Below, piece by piece: positions 25,477 through 46,747 of a stretch of 64,000 nt of DNA. This stretch comes from Yuukianura sp. NJ FZ-2021. Lineage: Eukaryota. A model generated the notes under the pieces. The model was not told where the DNA came from. It made no database searches and saw only the letters and a program-made list of their open reading frames with translations. Location: positions 4,340,001-4,404,000 of the forward strand of contig CM102283.1 in NCBI GenBank assembly GCA_046563655.1, given 5' to 3'. A program made the position numbers and the translations under genes. How positions within the stretch are numbered: the stretch's first letter is position 1; each line of letters begins with the position of its first letter.

Positions 25477-25579
25477 GGTTCTAGCAAATTAAATCAATAA
25501 TTATACAGTTAAGTTCCCCAGAACTAAAAGTCGCAGCATCTAAGCTAATAGTACATAGTATATTACCCAAGAGGTGCAC

Positions 25580-25823
25580 TTATGCAGTAACCTGCCCCGT
25601 TCGCCGTTCTTCAACTGCCTTGCCAAGTTTCCCTGTCAATGGAGTGAAACATTTCTTGCTTACTTTAAAATGTAGATTGTTAAATATGAATTGACTGAGC
25701 ACCTAACTATTATGACTTACACTTCCGAGTGTGATTCCAATCTGCGATAATCAGACCAAAGCAAATGACGGGGAAGATAATTGACGCTCGATATCTTTTC
25801 CAAGAAGTGGCTACACCACCCAT
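25580..25823 (-). CDS. spliced 51-aa single-TM micropeptide, copy A (exons 25823-25721 and 25632-25580)
   Basis: MGGVATSWKRYRASIIFPVICFGLIIADWNHTRK|WKLGKAVEERRTGQVTA*. A canonical 88-nt GTAAGT...TTGACAG intron joins the exons in frame. Confidence 0.7.
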
Positions 25824-26432
25824 CAAGGGACAAGAATCAACTGAAAAGCGTCTAGTGAATTCACTGGTTACCCACAACACAACAATCAAGGATTTAAGCT
25901 ACGCAAAATTCAATGACAAAAAACTGATCAACAGCAATACTGTGCAGCTGGTGTGAATCGTGTATGTAAGCGCAGAAGAGTGAGAGTGAGAGTACGGTTA
26001 GTACGGACGAGTTCCAAAGTAATCAGCAGTTTGTTTCTTACTTTTGTAAAATCGAGCTCACTAATCCTCGGAAATCTCGGAAGTTTGCAAAACAGAAGCA
26101 AATTCCTGTATGCGGCTGCGTAAGGATTAGTAATCCTAATCCGGATTCCGGAATTTGCTTCTGTTTTGCAAACTTCCGAGATTTCCGAGGATTAGTGAGC
26201 TCGATTTTACAAAAGTAAGAAACAAACTGCTGATTACTTTGGAACTCGTCCGTACTAACCGTACTCTCACTCTCACTCTTCTGCGCTTACATACACGATT
26301 CACACCAGCTGCACAGTATTGCTGTTGATCAGTTTTTTGTCATTGAATTTTGCGTAGCTTAAATCCTTGATTGTTGTGTTGTGGGTAACCAGTGAATTCA
26401 CTAGACGCTTTTCAGTTGATTCTTGTCCCTTG

Positions 26433-26676
26433 ATGGGTGGTGTAGCCACTTCTTGGAAAAGATATCGAGCGTCAATTATCTTCCCCGTCATTTGCTTTGG
26501 TCTGATTATCGCAGATTGGAATCACACTCGGAAGTGTAAGTCATAATAGTTAGGTGCTCAGTCAATTCATATTTAACAATCTACATTTTAAAGTAAGCAA
26601 GAAATGTTTCACTCCATTGACAGGGAAACTTGGCAAGGCAGTTGAAGAACGGCGAACGGGGCAGGTTACTGCATAA
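26433..26676 (+). CDS. spliced 51-aa micropeptide, copy B (exons 26433-26535 and 26624-26676)
   Basis: Mirror copy of 25580-25823 in the right palindrome arm. Confidence 0.65.
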
Positions 26677-27266
26677 GTGCACCTCTTGGGTAATATACTA
26701 CGTACTATTAGCTAGAAGAAATCGAGCGTCAATTATCTTCCCAGTCATTTGCTTTGGTCTGATTATCGCAGATTGGAATCACACTCGGAAGTGTAAGTCA
26801 TAATAGTTAGGTGCTCAGTCAATTCATATTTAACAATCTACATTTTAAAGTAAGCAAGAAATGTTTCACTCCATTGACAGGGAAACTTGGCAAGGCAGTT
26901 GAAGAACGGCGAACGGGGCAGGTTACTGCATAAGTGCACCTCTTGGGTAATATACTACGTACTATTAGCTAGAAGAAATCGAGCGTCAATTATCTTCCCA
27001 GTCATTTGCTTTGGTCTGATTATCGCAGATTGGAATCACACTCGGAAGTGTAAGTCATAATAGTTAGGTGCTCAGTCAATTCATATTTAACAATCTACAT
27101 TTTAAAGTAAGCAAGAAATGTTTCACTCCATTGACAGGGAAACTTGGCAAGGCAGTTGAAGAACGGCGAACGGGGCAGGTTACTGCATAAGTGCACCTCT
27201 TGGGTAATATACTACGTACTATTAGCTAGAAGAAATCGAGCGTCAATTATCTTCCCAGTCATTTGC
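26464..27266 (+). repeat. tandem repeat, 257-bp unit, ~3.1 copies
   Basis: ATCGAGCGTCAATTATCTTCC recurs at 26464, 26721, 26978 and 27235. Confidence 0.97.
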
Positions 27267-27272
27267 CTTACC

Positions 27273-28287
27273 ATGGCAGCTGCTCATGCTCGCCCGCCAA
27301 CACTAGGCGCTCGGTTGGCCGCATCCGAAGCCCAGAGAAGGAGAAATAACGCAGTCATTAACTCTCAACGACATACTATTAATCAACTACTCGTTACAAT
27401 TATACACACTAGAAATTCGGTAGCAAACCTTACCGGAACTTACCGAACTCTACAAAACCAGAACCGCCGACTGCAAGATTCGTTAAATTTGGCAAATTGG
27501 AGACTGCAGTTAGTGACATGTAAGTTCTATTGGAAAAAGTTTACTATCGTGGGTTAGTACTTTTGTCAAAAAAAATGTTTTTTTTTCATAACTTGATGGT
27601 TTTCAGTGTGCTGAGTAAGAATTTAGCCGCGGAGACCCAACTTTCCAGTGCTTTCAATTTTTTTCAAAATTTTGAAAAAAAATTTCGAAAAATTTTTTTT
27701 TGCTCCGACTTGCATGAAATTCATTTCCTAGACTAATTCGCGTGTGCTGAACCCGATTCTGAAATTAGATTTGGCAAAGACCTACAATTAACCTAACCTA
27801 ACCTAACCTAGCTTAACATAAAGTAAAACAAAATCTAATTGCAGATTCGGATTCAGCACCCTCGAATTAGCCTAGGAAATGAATTTCATGCAATTCGGAG
27901 AAAAAATTTTTTTTTGAAATTTTGAAAAAAAAAATTTTTGAAAAAAAAATTCAAAACAAAAAATTTATTTTTCCGCGGTCATATTCTTACTCATTAGGGT
28001 CTACTACATCATAAAAGTGCAAAAAAAAAAAATTTTTTTTTTTTGAGAAAAGTACTAACCCACGGTAGTAAACTTTTACCTTGACTTTTTTTGAATAAAT
28101 TATGAATTATGAATTATGAATAATGTTTGAATAAATAATTTATGTAGATATCCTTGTGGCGACGTTAAGCTTCGGAGTATTCTATACTGTGCTGCTGCCC
28201 TTATTCAGTTCCATTCGGTTGAACCAATCCGCCGCAGATGACCCATTGCCGAATTTACATAAGGTTAGATTGGAATTTAGGTTATAA
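27273..28287 (+). CDS. orphan coiled-coil plus TM protein, 2 exons (27273-27519 and 28148-28287)
   Basis: MAAAHARPPT...YRTLQNQNRRLQDSLNLANWRLQLVT|YILVATLSFGVFYTVLLPLFSSIRLNQ...*. The GTAAG donor and TAG acceptor are phase-compatible, and a MITE fills most of the intron. Confidence 0.5.
27532..28080. mobile_element. foldback MITE with GG termini and central (TAACC)n
   Basis: TIR GG(A/T)AAAAGTTTACTA(T/C)CGTGGGTTAGTACTTTT. Inverted symmetry continues inward (CTCCGACTTGCATGAAATTCATTTCCTAG...). No clear TSD. Confidence 0.8.
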
Positions 28288-28405
28288 ATGGAAAAATTGA
28301 GGTTTACACCATAGCTCCGATTTTGATGGCAATTATTTTGGCATTTAGTAGGCTCGTTTTGAAAAAAATTGACATCAAAATCGGAGCCACGGTGGTAAAC
28401 CTCAA

Positions 28406-28803
28406 TTATACTGTTTTGTACATTTTCTGGATGCTCTGTGCAGCCCCTTCAACAGTTCCAATGACAGTTCCTCTGCTAGTGTTTTGACACCATCCACGCA
28501 GTCCCAGTTCCTTTCCTTTGGCTACCGTGTACTTAAAATTAAAAATACGTTTATTAAATTAATGAAATTTTCAAAAGATCGGTTCAAAATCGAGGAGATT
28601 TCGAATTCAAGAGGTGTCTGACTTAGTACTTTCCGAAAGAAAACTCCTAAAATAAAAAGAAAATTTTTTTTAGAACGTTCCTTTTCGTAATCTTTTTTAA
28701 GAAAAAGAGACATTTTTCCGTTTCGTTTCTCACCTTGTACTTTTCCCTGAACTTCAAAATCCAACGAATGAAGAGACTGAGGCGACGTTACTGCATCAGC
28801 CAT
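28406..28803 (-). pseudogene. ACYP: acylphosphatase, 3'-truncated (last exon not found)
   Basis: Exons 28803-28734, 28646-28630 and 28531-28422 give MADAVTSPQSLHSLDFEVQGKVQGVFFRKYTVAKGKELGLRGWCQNTSRGTVIGTVEG...QKM. The expected WL...GSP...I terminal exon is absent, and read-through stops at 28406. Confidence 0.8.
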
Positions 28804-28945
28804 TTTGGAACAAATTCAAAATTCCCGCCATAAAACAATAATGTGATGTCGTATTTTTAAATTCTTGATTACTGGAAAATTGGAATTCAAAATGCGAATT
28901 TTACACAGTACCTAATGCATGTTTAAATTCTGGTTTTGTTAGACA

Positions 28946-29616
28946 ATGTCGGAGAAAGAAAAGAAGCCCTTCCAGCAGACCGCTGACCGACACGAAAGTC
29001 GCTACGACAGCGAGATACAACACAATGTTGTTGAAAAATGGGGGCCGGTATGGAAGGAGTTGAACCACCGCATGAATCCAGAGGAAGCCGTTACTTATGA
29101 CGCTGCTGTTCAGACTGCCATTCTCTATGGTGAAAAGTCGGAAGACCACAAGGGACGTCTGAGCAACGAAGAAACTGATCGGATGATCAACGATGCCGAT
29201 CAATACCAAGCGGAGGAGGAGAAACAGGAGGACCGTGTTTCGGCCAAGAAATCATTGGAGAGCTACTGCTTCAACATCAAGAACATAATTGAGGAGGAGA
29301 ATATCAAGGACAAAATTTCTGGTAAGTGACCTCTAACATTTTTTTGAAATTGCGAATTTTGAAAACTAAATGTTTTTGAATTTTTGCAGAGGACGATCAC
29401 AAATTGGTTGGGAACAAGTGGGTAGAAATCATCAAATGGCTCAATGCCAATCAGCTCGCAGAAAAGGAAGAATTTGAAGACAAGCAGAAGGAGCTGGAGA
29501 AGATTTGCAATCCAGTTATCACTAAATTGTATGCTGCGGGTGGAGCTCTAACTTCCGGAATGCCCGGAACTGGTGGATTTCCCGGAGAGGGAAAAGTTAG
29601 ACAAGAACGAAGTTAA
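28946..29616 (+). CDS. chimeric HMG-box fragment::internally deleted Hsp70/Hsc70 (gene or pseudogene), 2 exons
   Basis: [26 protein letters not shown] resembles HMG-box helix 3. [30 protein letters not shown] matches the end of the Hsp70 NBD and joins directly to [15 protein letters not shown]...LESYCFNIK, then after an intron [35 protein letters not shown] (Hsp70 lid). There is no EEVD. Confidence 0.75.
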
Positions 29617-29789
29617 TACAAGAATTCATCTACAGTCGAAGCACGGCATGTGTAGAAAAGTATCTTAAAACGAATCAAATTGTTTCTAAGCGATGTCAGT
29701 AGATGCCCAGGTTCAAAATGAGGTGCTGCCACAGACACAGCCAAATAAATTAAGATTGCAACTGCAGATTAAGATGCAGTTATAAGCAT

Positions 29790-29856
29790 TACGGACGGAC
29801 AGACGGACGGACGGACGGACATTACGATCCCTATAAGTATCTGACGATACTTAATA
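29790..29856 (-). mobile_element. DINE-1/Helentron-like terminus fragment
   Basis: A (GGAC/AGAC)n microsatellite followed by hairpin AAGTATCTGACGATACTT and AATAA, the same layout as the ends at 39375-39396 and 52698-52719. Confidence 0.55.
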
Positions 29857-30237
29857 ACAGAGATTGCCCGAACACCATAAAGTAGTTTCTTGAAGGTTTC
29901 GTTCACTAAGTCAGTTAACGTTCAATAGGAATTGATTATAAGCTTATAAACATCAACCTACTTATCATACTGTGTAAAAAGTAAGTTTACTAATCCGTTT
30001 ACTTGTTTCTAACGGCGTTCTCTCGGGAACTTGTGTTTTCCTGAACATAACACGTTTTGACTCCCGTTGCGTTGATAAGAACAGCATTACATAGAAGATT
30101 GAGACGTTTCGAAGGTATGAGAGTAACCTGATATGGCATGATCGTTAAAAATTATCCTCCGATGAGTACATTTGTTATGGTTGACATTACGGCAACTTGA
30201 AATTGGAACAAGAAGAGGACTTTGATTTAGTTTCTGT

Positions 30238-30415
30238 GGTTGGAGAGTAGCAAAGGGGTCCGTTTTTCTTTTAGTGTGAGCTATGTTTATCAAATCAGGA
30301 CACAGTGCACAGTCCCTGAGTTAGGTTAGGTTAGGTGTTGAAGGTGCACTGTGTCCTGATTTGATAACCTAACTCACACTAAAAGAAAAACGGACCCCAT
30401 TGCTACTCTCCAACC
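30238..30415. mobile_element. MITE with GG...CC termini, 8-bp TSD and central (TTAGG)3
   Basis: ~70-bp imperfect TIR GGTTGGAGAGTAGCAA.... TSD GTTTCTGT at 30230-30237 and 30416-30423. Confidence 0.9.
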
Positions 30416-35219: not shown

Positions 35220-37040
35220 TTACTCAAATGCAAAGTTCTTCGTCTTCCTAGTTCTGGTTCCCCTTCTGAGTGAGGTTGGTTTCCTTGGTACCCTTCTGAT
35301 TCTGGACGGGACGAAGGGAGGTGATGGGGAAAAGCCTGTCACAAACCTGGATCGTGGTCGAAGTGGGACAAGTAATTTGCTCCTTGCTTCCAGCATCCCT
35401 TCTATGCTCATTCCACTTAAGTCACCAACCATGTTCGTGTCCTGCGTTGACCCTGCGTCCTTCAGTGCTGTGTGCGATGGTGCTGGCTCCTTCACTTTCT
35501 TTGCTGGCGGCGAACTTCCATTTCCACTTTCCGTCTCCTTCTGTGGTCGTACAAGAGTCTGCTCCGGTTCGTCCTGTGCTGTGCTCAGTCCATGCAAGTC
35601 ACCAACGATGTTCGTGTCTTGCGTTGACCCTGCGTCCTTCAGTACTATGTGCGATAGGGATCTGGCTTTTGTCTTCTTAGCAGTCGGTGAACTTCCTTTT
35701 GCACTTTCAGTCTTCCTCTTCTTAGCAGAAGGAGAACTTCCTTTTGCACTTTCCGTCTCCTTCTGTGGTCGCACTAGAGTCTGCTCCGGTTCGTCCTGTG
35801 CTGTGCTTAGTTCATGTAAGTCACCAACGATGTTCTCGTCCTGCGTTGACCCTGCGTCCTTCAGTGCTTGGTGCGATGACGCTGGCTCTTTCGTCTTCTT
35901 AGCAGTCGAACTTCTGTTTGCACTTTGCGTCTTCTTAGCAGGTCGCGATCTTCCCTCTGCACTTTCCGTCTTCTTAGCAGGCGGTAAACATTCTTTTGCA
36001 ATTTCCGTCTTCTTAGCAAGTGGCGAACTTCCTTTAGTACTTTCCGTCTTCTGTGGTCGCACAAGAGTCTGCTCCGGTTCGTCATGCGCTGTGCTCAGTG
36101 CACGTAAGTCACCGCTGACACTCGTGTCACGCCTTGATCCTGCGTCCTTCAGTGCTGGGTGCGATGACGCTGGCTCCTTCGTCTTCTTAGCAGTCGAACT
36201 TCTCTCTGCACTTTGCGTCTTCTTAGCAGGTCGCGATCTTCCCGTTGCACTTTCCGTCTTCTTAGCAAGCGGTGAACATCCTTTTGCAATTTCCGTCTTC
36301 TTAGCAAGCAGCGAACTTCCCTTTGCACTTTCCTTCTTCTTCTGTGGTCGCACCAGAGTGTGCTCAGGTTCGTCATGTGCTGCCATCAGAGGATCATCAG
36401 GGATGTCAATGTCATCATCATCAGTCTCCATTGATACGTCCACCAGTTCCCGAATCATTCCACAAATCTCGTTCAATTTAGAATCCAGACGCCGTTTCCT
36501 TTCGCGAGACGCAACCGGTATGACGACTTTCACTGTTATATAAGGAGGAATTTTCTTACGTGGAGGCTCATCCGTCACTCCACTCTTGTTAGCTGGTGTT
36601 CGTTTTCCTTTCGTCGGTGGTTTACTTTGTGGCCGACTTGTATGCAAAGCGGGAGGAGTAGAAGCCATTTTTCGTTTTCCTTTGCCAATCTTAGGTGGAA
36701 CGCGAATTGAGCTCAACTCATTGGAAGTTACTGAAGCGATTTCAACTTGCACTTCATAGTCACTCGAATTGGACTTTGAAAGAGGTAGTTCCCATGTCTC
36801 CGATTCAGAAACAAGATCCACCAGCTCAATGTCCGACTCTACTTCGTCTTCATCCTCCTTTTCAGGGTCTTGCTTCTCCGTATTCACGGTGACCTGTGAA
36901 TCAGGCGTCTTGTAAAGGCGTGAATCAGGCAAACTTGAAAGTGAAACGCAGCTTTTGGCGGGATGCGTGAAGCTCTTCTGTGAGCCAGATTGATTAACAA
37001 CAGGAAATATGGGAGTCCCACCCCACTCTCCCATTATCAT
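35220..37040 (-). CDS. intronless 606-aa Lys/Ser-rich repetitive low-complexity protein
   Basis: Long uninterrupted ORF with repeated A(H/Q)DEPEQTLVRPQK, SSP(L/P)AKKTES and ALKDAGSTQD modules. No recognisable domain. Confidence 0.6.
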   Translation of the reverse strand: MIMGEWGGTPIFPVVNQSGSQKSFTHPAKSCVSLSSLPDSRLYKTPDSQVTVNTEKQDPEKEDEDEVESDIELVDLVSESETWELPLSKSNSSDYEVQVEIASVTSNELSSIRVPPKIGKGKRKMASTPPALHTSRPQSKPPTKGKRTPANKSGVTDEPPRKKIPPYITVKVVIPVASRERKRRLDSKLNEICGMIRELVDVSMETDDDDIDIPDDPLMAAHDEPEHTLVRPQKKKESAKGSSLLAKKTEIAKGCSPLAKKTESATGRSRPAKKTQSAERSSTAKKTKEPASSHPALKDAGSRRDTSVSGDLRALSTAHDEPEQTLVRPQKTESTKGSSPLAKKTEIAKECLPPAKKTESAEGRSRPAKKTQSANRSSTAKKTKEPASSHQALKDAGSTQDENIVGDLHELSTAQDEPEQTLVRPQKETESAKGSSPSAKKRKTESAKGSSPTAKKTKARSLSHIVLKDAGSTQDTNIVGDLHGLSTAQDEPEQTLVRPQKETESGNGSSPPAKKVKEPAPSHTALKDAGSTQDTNMVGDLSGMSIEGMLEARSKLLVPLRPRSRFVTGFSPSPPFVPSRIRRVPRKPTSLRRGTRTRKTKNFAFE

Positions 37041-37132
37041 ATCATCTTATTTTCATCAAATGACTGAATGATAACAAACTGGTGAATGCTGACGCTGATT
37101 GAATGCTGGTAGTTTTGGCTTTCTTGGCATGA

Positions 37133-41063: not shown

Positions 41064-41574
41064 GAAATAACAACTTATCCAATTTTTTTTAACTTTTGTT
41101 GTTGATTGCACCATTTTGTTCCGAATTGGATAAACATTTACATACTGAAGAGATTTGTTTTCTTTCAGTAAATTTTTGTTTAAAATAATTGCAGGAAACG
41201 AATGTTACTTCGAAAAATTCTGGAAAATCCAATTTCTTTGGTTCGGAAGAGTACGAAATATTACGCTTTTCAAAAAACAGTAAATCAACATGATAGGGCT
41301 GATTTAACGTCTGATTTAACATTTATTTTTCCAGTCTAAACATAGTACATGGTCACCCCAATTCTGTAATTGCTTTTAGACTTAAGTTGTGTCAAAACGA
41401 CGTCAACAGCTATATACACTCTACAAAATTTAGTTGATTAATTAAGTTGAAGCACAAACAATTTTGGGTAGTGACCTATGACCTTATCGCTACAAAACAG
41501 GTATCACAAAATTTGGCGAACATCTTGAGAAAACTGGTTTCAATTTTTACTATTGCATGTTTTTCAACAAAACA

Positions 41575-45009
<3,435 letters not shown>

Positions 45010-46067
45010 TTACCACAAAAGTTTTGCATGTTGTAATACTGGAAATTGTATCTCCTGTACTAACTAATTTGATTTCGCAGTCAGTTATCCCACTCGTAGA
45101 TAGAAGTCAAGCAATACCAGATGACGTGTCTGATTCCTTCCTTTTCAGTTATCCTGTCTTAAGTCGTCTCCACACTAACCAATTATCTAGTAGCAATGTT
45201 TGTGCCAGCTTTATTGTCCGATTCTGGTGCCATCGACATTGGAAACCCGTTCCCATTACCAATTTTAGCTACTGGCAATTTTCTTGTAAATTGAAGGGCG
45301 GGAATTTACTGTTTTCAAAGTTTTGTTTGTTTACGTTTTGATTCTGACACAAGTTGTGTCACACAACTCACTTTTCATTCCGACAGCTGTTCATGAATAA
45401 CTTAAGTTAATGGATTAATTAAGTTAATTAATTCATTACGTTAATTAATTACGTTAGTTATTAATTAATTAATTAAGTAATTATTGAGTAATTCATGAAC
45501 ACTATTGTAGTTAAATACGTTTCAAGTGAGAGTTTGAGTTTACTATGAGACTTTTCACTATCAGTGGAAGCCACTCCCCCTCTCAATGAACCCTCCAATT
45601 CCGGGCCGGCAATAATTCTGCTGCACTGTTTTGGATTTGATTTTCGAATCTAGAAAAGTGCAGCAGCAATATCGGCGCAAGGCTTGCACCGATATTGGTG
45701 GCATGAGAATTTGTATCCCACACCACCAATTTTTCTGCCGATTTTGATGTGCACCGATATTGCTGCCAAGAAGATTGGTAGTGTGGAGATGCCTTTTTAT
45801 ATCTACAAAGCCTGTCCGTCCCAACTCTAATTTTTAACCGGGCCCTCTCGGATGGAGTTGATTTTGCAAAAAGGTGCAAAAAAAACAAAAAATCACCCTT
45901 GGTTTCGAAATTTTCAAAAAATGTTAAGCACTGCGCACACTCACGTTTTAACCACCACTAAAGCAATTGAGAAGTCAAGATTTAAGGCTCTGTTAGCTCG
46001 GCAACGAAAAGGTCTGATAACTACTTAAAATTGACCATTTTCTAAAATCAGTTAAAAATCGTAGGAT

Positions 46068-46310
46068 CAACGTAGAACGTTAAGCAAGGTATCAAAATTT
46101 GCGGAAGAGCGTGGCGGGGTATTCAACGGAACGGAATCGAAATATCTTAACCCGTTTAAAAGTTATAACCGATTTAACAAAAGTAATCGCGAATAATCGT
46201 TGTTTTTTAGGTTTCAACGTGAGAATTTCTAATTTTTTTTTCCGTTGAAAACCCCGCAATCGCATTTCACAAATTTTGATACCATTAATCGTCTTTCTAT
46301 GTTCATCCTA
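46068..46310. mobile_element. imperfect inverted repeat, probable MITE interior
   Basis: GGTATCAAAATTTG...GCGGGGT.TTCAACGGAA is mirrored by TTCCGTTGAAAACCCCGC...CAAATTTTGATACC. Confidence 0.55.
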
Positions 46311-46747
46311 GCGTGCTCTGGCACTCATTTTACAAACTGACCAAAAATTCTCGAAGTTTGACTGCGAATCCACACAAATCACCAAGACATCGGCAATTGT
46401 TTATATGTTTGAACGAAAGATACAACAAATCCCCACGGGTGGATTTGAGTGAAAACGAACAAATATGCCGACTTCTAGTGTCAAACAAAAATCAATTTTG
46501 TAGTTGTTAACGGAAACGATTGGTGTAAATTAGTCAACAATAAGTCGTCCTTAAGAATACGAATATTGATGTTTCAAAAGTTAATTAAAAATTTTGTTTG
46601 AGTTAATTTGACACTTTGTTTTATTTGAGACTTTAAGTTGAAGCACAAACAATTATATCTTATTGCTACAAAACAGGTATCACACAATTTGGCGAACATT
46701 TGGACAAAAACTGTTTTCATTCCTATGTAGCACCAACTCTAAACATC

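Follow-up and report, generated by a model that had tools for sequence, protein, structure and literature searches.

An in-frame HMG-box::Hsp70 chimera within a gene-fragment mosaic at a joint between duplicated blocks

An in-frame fusion of an HMG-box fragment with two fragments of an Hsc70 gene is encoded on the plus strand at 28946-29616 of the window analysed here (G000:C1:4340001-4404000, 64,000 nt of a 98.7-Mb assembly). The fusion is real, and a genome search shows its ORF to occupy the centre of a larger mosaic, present as a single copy, in which an antisense acylphosphatase fragment, an HMGB fragment, two Hsc70 pieces, an exon of a small-Tim gene and one Helentron-type repeat end follow each other. 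Two large duplicated blocks flank the mosaic, which sits in the 4 kb that join them. We consider it probable that it is decaying junction filler, left behind by break repair with repeated template switches that joined the two blocks. A living chimera would represent an Hsp70 derivative reduced by nature to the lid and would directly test the role of the lid apart from the chaperone cycle. If it is dead, it is a clear, ordinary record of repair stitching pieces of housekeeping genes into gene-shaped sequence in a rearranged genome.

The chimeric frame and the parts of the mosaic

The spliced ORF encodes 200 amino acids in two exons (28946-29321 and 29390-29616) and ends with a stop codon at 29614-29616. 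An acceptor AG (28941-28942) precedes the ATG at 28946, the 68-nt intron (29322-29389) has intact GT..AG borders and is inherited from the Hsc70 parent, and 128 nt beyond the stop codon, at 29744, lies an AATAAA. The gene-like anatomy of acceptor and ATG, intact intron, stop and AATAAA is hence complete. The initial annotation had described an in-frame HMG-box::Hsp70 chimera with a splice acceptor upstream, a retained intron, no stop over ~200 codons and no EEVD. All of this is borne out, the chimera itself by alignment with Hsc70 and by a match to an HMGB parent (G000:C1:5069853-5069944, 85% identity over 92 nt). In the alignment, chimera residues 37-66 correspond to Hsc70 357-386 and residues from 67 on to Hsc70 505 onward, with residues 67-125 of exon 1 aligning with Hsc70 505-563. 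Exon 2 matches the lid structure 1ud0_A (3.9e-21), so that the helical lid is present. Between the two Hsp70 parts 118 Hsc70 residues (387-504) are missing, in agreement with the earlier expectation that 115-120 residues normally lie between AILxGDKSE and DKGRLS.

The mosaic begins on the left with the 5' part of an acylphosphatase gene (28419-28901, minus strand; Pfam PF00708, E 2e-5), which comprises three exons and two introns, lacks the last exon and is 89% identical to G000:C3:994328-994810. It is followed by ~31 nt of filler (28902-28933) and by the HMGB piece (28934-29023, plus strand), which consists of an intron end with its acceptor and the last 27 codons of box A. A 26-nt filler (29024-29049, plus strand), overlooked by the initial annotation, separates the HMG and Hsp70 parts; a genome-wide search with its first 25 nt, allowing up to 3 mismatches, finds nothing besides the filler itself. 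Hsc70 piece a (29050-29145, plus strand; ~residues 357-386) is 84% identical to the parent on C5 (L021:4236-4332), and a 1-nt gap near 29056 relative to this parent sets the reading frame of the chimera. Before Hsc70 piece b (29145-29587, plus strand; 88% to L021:4776-5218) 444 nt of the parent are skipped, and the piece runs from ~505 in the lid into the glycine-rich tail; the overlap at the a/b joint is 1 nt. The EEVD tail is replaced by a 44-nt filler (29588-29631, plus strand) that holds the stop codon. Behind it lies the broken last exon of a small-Tim gene (Tim10/DDP family; 29632-29743, plus strand; 77% to G000:C1:4691467-4691582), which has a 1-nt gap and a 3-nt gap compared to its parent and is frameshifted. 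A match at C1:4692383, near the Tim donor, was considered as a further donor and rejected as a dispersed repeat.

The donors are thus four unlinked genes on three contigs, and the pieces are 11-23% diverged from their parents. The parent loci of the chimera segments could be identified, HMGB on C1 and Hsc70 on C5. Genome searches, which give lower bounds, detected every parent a single time and the mosaic nowhere else. For the fillers no template was found in the window or in the four donor neighbourhoods, nor genome-wide for the one filler searched there. Since introns are kept, copying took place at the DNA level. The DNA-level shuffling proposed earlier therefore stands and was understated, as four unlinked genes contributed five pieces that retain their introns. 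The accompanying hint at a function is not established. The extension of the mosaic to both sides of the ORF (acylphosphatase, small Tim and repeat end) had been missed.

Tested for the features of the families from which its parts derive, the chimera falls short in all but the helical lid. The HMG part alone reaches a Pfam E value of 0.015 and 16.2 bits against a cut-off of 25.4 and covers profile positions 42-67 only, so that the full HMG box of ~69 residues above the cut-off is absent. The initial annotation had named a missing HMG-box profile hit of this segment as refutation; the piece alone stays below the cut-off, and the next exon of its parent gene hits HMG_box with 2e-25. The complete Hsp70 ATPase domain is reduced to residues ~357-386, the interdomain linker and the substrate-binding beta domain both lie inside the skipped 387-504, and the C-terminal EEVD, in which the parent Hsc70 ends, is lacking. 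By the features tested, the chimera belongs neither to the Hsp70 nor to the HMG-box nor to the Pack-TIR families. An Hsp70 without ATPase domain, substrate-binding beta domain, interdomain linker and EEVD has no Hsp70 cycle, and the EEVD serves TPR co-chaperones. If translated, the chimeric protein would be unable to run this cycle and would be at most a lid decoy. DNA bending is not expected, as a complete HMG box is missing.

The joint between the duplicated blocks

The left flanking block (1-25864) is an inverted duplicate of G000:C1:4846929-4919388 with 75-99% identity by segment. It measures ~74 kb in all, continues ~48 kb to the left of the window, and its inverted partner stops at an assembly gap. 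Identity between the two drops from 97-98% far off to 87-93% near the joint. The genes in this block, which we take to be Sec61-alpha-, TBC-domain- and NDUFB1-like, differ between the copies with pS 0.091 and pN 0.005 over 685 codons; the pN/pS of ~0.06 indicates strong constraint, and the proteins are almost identical. The right flanking block (29852 to at least 53557) is 5'-truncated at 29852. Its long copies are found at C1:434-465 kb and C5:979-1009 kb and a short one at C5:1436-1438 kb, with 82-99% identity. Its genes are presumably fascin- and myosin-light-chain-like, and two in-frame fascin pieces differ between the copies by 1 replacement and 13-15 silent changes in 223 codons, which again points to strong constraint. 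The right block in the window has lost ~7 kb of upstream sequence common to two of the other copies, and through this loss the fascin-like gene may have lost its promoter. Either the flanking blocks are duplicates that still work, or the assembly has placed diverged haplotypes one after the other; the left block and its partner, in particular, could represent a ~480-kb inversion of which two old haplotypes were assembled in this way.

Three further features of the right block lie apart from the mosaic. At 30238-30415 there is a MITE-like insertion that the three paralogous copies lack. An open frame of 608 codons with long internal repeats (35223-37046, minus strand) is 95-98% identical in the paralogous blocks. 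At 41543-46632 ~5 kb are missing from both long paralogues, and a polyubiquitin/calcium-pump-like chimera is found there beside a high-copy repeat. Its donor matches were confirmed at C4:13.37 Mb (polyubiquitin) and C3:13.66 Mb (which we assume to be calcium-pump-like).

On the left side of the joint a young fold-back (25543-27269) has 573-nt arms with 4 differences, plus three 257-nt tandem copies. Through it, the NDUFB1 5' (upstream-ORF) exons are present in further copies on the plus strand, together with their splice donors (26690, 26947, 27204), and face the chimera. NDUFB1 and the chimera both begin with an acceptor few bases before the ATG, and the 5' region of NDUFB1 in the window differs from that of the other NDUFB1 copy. 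At 27273-27519 there is an 82-codon frame (27273-27518) with an ATG and a GT donor at 27520 that has no other match in the genome. As a leader exon this frame was discarded, its donor being out of phase with the chimera. A MITE-like element with 55-nt terminal inverted repeats (27532-28080) and the remnant of a TIR repeat family, consisting of two inverted ends (28286-28416), lie between the fold-back and the mosaic. Both close on themselves, and no partner TIR arm was found to the right of the mosaic.

At this duplication breakpoint several distant templates are joined, four genes end to end with 26-44-nt fillers, and the mosaic adjoins the fold-back and a truncated rolling-circle repeat. Repair synthesis, either by FoSTeS/MMBIR-type switching or by transposon gap repair, would have copied the pieces. 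Replacement divergence is uneven among them (P 0.0007), silent divergence is not (P 0.27), and because dN differs a single event does not fit; the copying probably took more than one round. Microhomology at the joints amounts to 1 nt at Hsc70 a/b, elsewhere there are fillers, and later divergence blurs the joints. Such joints, with little microhomology and with fillers for which no template was found, do not single out one repair pathway. The pieces from HMGB and Hsp70 may have come into frame by chance or through one later 1-nt loss, followed by drift.

Cargo, gene or artefact

The main mechanistic rival to template-switch repair is capture by a Helentron. The right end of the mosaic carries the 80-nt terminus of a high-copy HINE/DINE-1-like repeat (29778-29857, minus strand) with a 14-nt subterminal repeat and a GTCY microsatellite, the other end of which is missing. 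Full-length copies of this family have the 14-nt subterminal inverted repeat at both ends together with the GTCY microsatellite, and DINE-1/HINE elements are described as bearing subterminal inverted repeats and a microsatellite in the accessible text of PMC4067079. All 5' end features of a Helentron/HINE (subterminal repeat, microsatellite, TT target) are present at 29778-29857. The HINE-like family (L004-L020) has a length of 0.6-1.2 kb and includes composite copies with the end of one element inside another. The gene pieces would then be functionless cargo of an element whose 5' end survives at 29857 and whose 3' end was lost by later rearrangement. The repeat terminus directly abuts the right block, where there is an AA/TT site; the three paralogous sites lack this terminus. 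Moreover, as far as the same portion of the paper goes, Helentrons occasionally carry gene fragments and HINE-like elements lie near the breakpoints of Drosophila duplicates (PMC4067079). However, in 24-33 kb the other terminus is not seen among the matches listed. Within the window the subterminal repeat is matched exactly once, allowing 1-2 mismatches adds no further match, and neither a 3' repeat nor a stem-loop is found. The mosaic is single copy and gives no sign of amplification, and the portion of PMC4067079 considered here places gene fragments only in elements of two of its genomes. On balance we regard the cargo origin as unlikely.

Somewhat less likely still is that the chimera is a young gene under selection. 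It would consist of a mirrored NDUFB1 leader, the HMGB acceptor with its ATG, the small-Tim poly(A) signal and selected lid helices. The mirrored NDUFB1 promoter region and 5' exons would splice to the HMG-derived acceptor, and the C-terminal lid helices would be kept as an EEVD-less stand-alone module, while the N-terminal third drifts. As judged from sequence, its product could be a decoy that competes with Hsc70 for lid partners. In favour of such a gene, frame and splice sites are kept despite ~10% replacement divergence, the plus-strand donors of the fold-back are combined with an acceptor-then-ATG layout like that of NDUFB1 itself, and isolated lid fragments have solved structures (1ud0, 3lof, 2p32). 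A protein of the same architecture was not found in a search of 68-219-residue proteins, where the 10 hits among 49 candidates were all Hsp70 pieces that covered at most 46% of exon 1. Among the 15 of 63 papers listed on truncated or chimeric Hsp70 lid forms, titles and the opening lines of abstracts name no such fusion.

The overall divergence fits the drifting copy of a constrained gene. In 181 codons aligned with the parents there are 26.5 silent and 41.5 replacement differences, a dN/dS of 0.35 (0.50 with kappa 3). As the null model we used a copy that drifts while the protein of its parent is held constant; it predicts 45.0 or 40.3 replacements of 68, compared to 41.5 observed (P 0.26 and 0.71), so that the overall dN/dS cannot be distinguished from drift, which speaks against a selected gene. 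The initial annotation had named a dN/dS near 1, together with a lack of expression, as refutation; a value of 1 is not the appropriate null, since constraint on the parent persists and ~0.5 is expected. Function can thus not be concluded from a dN/dS below 1 when the parent is constrained. The truncated acylphosphatase piece, which is antisense and lies outside the protein, illustrates this: its ratio is equally low (dN/dS 0.20-0.25; 4 replacements and 6 silent changes in 65 codons, frame open), so that values below 1 do not speak for function in this case; its replacement/silent ratio is not different from that of the chimera (Fisher P 0.30).

The direction of the changes is also informative. 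Among 31 Hsp70 differences (2 of them at the a/b joint), the residue favoured by other Hsp70s is found in the parent in 26, in the chimera in 3 and in neither in 2, based on a comparison set of up to 16 sequences, six from this genome and ten from a protein search. In Hsc70 piece a, seven of nine changes strike columns that are invariant in 6/6 genomic Hsp70s. Within the lid, too, substitutions (Cys to Trp at 136, Asn to Lys at 102) fall at positions where the comparison set does not vary, which again argues against a selected lid.

The open frame and the 3' end of the ORF speak for a selected gene. Once the joints are in frame, a stop codon would be avoided with a probability of 0.11-0.27 and a frameshift with ~0.18; the frameshift rate is taken from one event, and the latter probability has a 95% range of 0 to 0.96. 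The combined chance of staying open once in frame is ~0.02-0.05. This low chance is partly offset, because the finding was picked for being open and in frame. Exon 2 alone has a dN/dS of 0.19-0.26 (P 0.05-0.13 against drift). The last 45 codons contain 1 replacement, whereas silent codon changes number 5 (5.2 expected). A permutation test for the lowest 45-codon window gives P 0.002, the size of the window being a post hoc choice. Two readings account for this quiet 3' tract, purifying selection that acts on the C-terminal lid helices and a later overwrite by an Hsc70 allele that still works, and the overwrite explains it equally well. Working copies in this genome differ at ~6-12% of silent sites. 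Furthermore, the fold-back, with 4 differences in 573 nt, looks far younger than the divergence of the ORF and cannot explain its maintenance in the past, unless the arms were homogenised. In the repair account, which we prefer, the conserved 3' tract would be such an overwrite.

That chimeric reads or contigs produced the mosaic is very improbable: the inverted partner of the left block does end at an assembly gap, a pattern also made by haplotype switches, and the read runs may be the assembly's own sample, but each piece is 11-23% off its parent, a divergence not to be had from chimeric reads that join loci already present, and the left junctions are bridged by contigs of three runs. Contigs of two of four DNA runs (X1 record 6, X3 record 21) bridge the three left junctions without differences, and an X2 contig (record 14) bridges them with 23 other letters. 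Runs X1, X2 and X3 are one sample, which may be the assembly's own data, and they are perhaps not independent of the assembly. For the right-hand junctions there is no bridging piece among the pieces listed. In run X5, 3 of the 30 bins to the left of the mosaic have zero depth, and the contigs listed for it include none at a junction; this run was left out of the evidence. An empty allele, suggested by contigs diverging left of 29852 (X2 record 15, X5 record 30) and by the low depth of the mosaic in X1 (102-126 vs ~300), was withdrawn, as the three flank paralogues explain both signs. Changes at 29424 and 29442 occur in contigs and are absent from the assembled Hsc70 parent, hence other Hsc70 alleles exist. 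At the Hsc70 locus (L021, G000:C5), the contigs of one sample bear variants at depths above that of the mosaic, and these represent unassembled alleles or copies.

Relation to known systems

With cytosolic Hsc70/Hsp70 (PF00012) the chimera shares the lid helices and 30 residues of the ATPase-domain end, but it lacks ~356 residues of the ATPase domain, the linker and the beta domain. Loss of the EEVD is shared with plant Hsp70T, which the available part of PMC10687569 defines by loss of the C-terminal motif. The likeness to HMGB/Dsp1-type HMG-box proteins (PF00505) is limited to the last 26-27 residues of box A, whereas a complete box is not contained in the chimera. Animal Pack-TIRs, including Ssk-FB4, resemble the mosaic in their intron-bearing host fragments, template switching and de novo filler (45 bp there), according to the text at hand (PMC8277862). 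In contrast, no TIR pair encloses the mosaic described here, and it is single copy.

Closer parallels come from duplication breakpoints. FoSTeS/MMBIR junctions, as characterized in the sections consulted of PMC8421209 and PMC6902434, likewise contain short distant pieces between duplicated blocks, a fold-back and little microhomology. The mosaic differs from these in its genic pieces of 90-480 nt, which stem from four genes on three contigs, are 11-23% diverged and are of unequal age, and the pathway would be read from sequence here. Drosophila chimeric duplicates with DINE-1/HINE, in the passages available (PMC4067079, PMC2211543), were likewise duplicated at the DNA level and carry a repeat of the HINE type where they break. 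They are described there as functional gene duplicates, while in our case four donors are mixed and the chimera is known from DNA alone. By analogy, the chimera would behave as a templated junction insertion, which is a known kind of structure, and it resembles the Drosophila duplicates with DINE-1 at their breakpoints.
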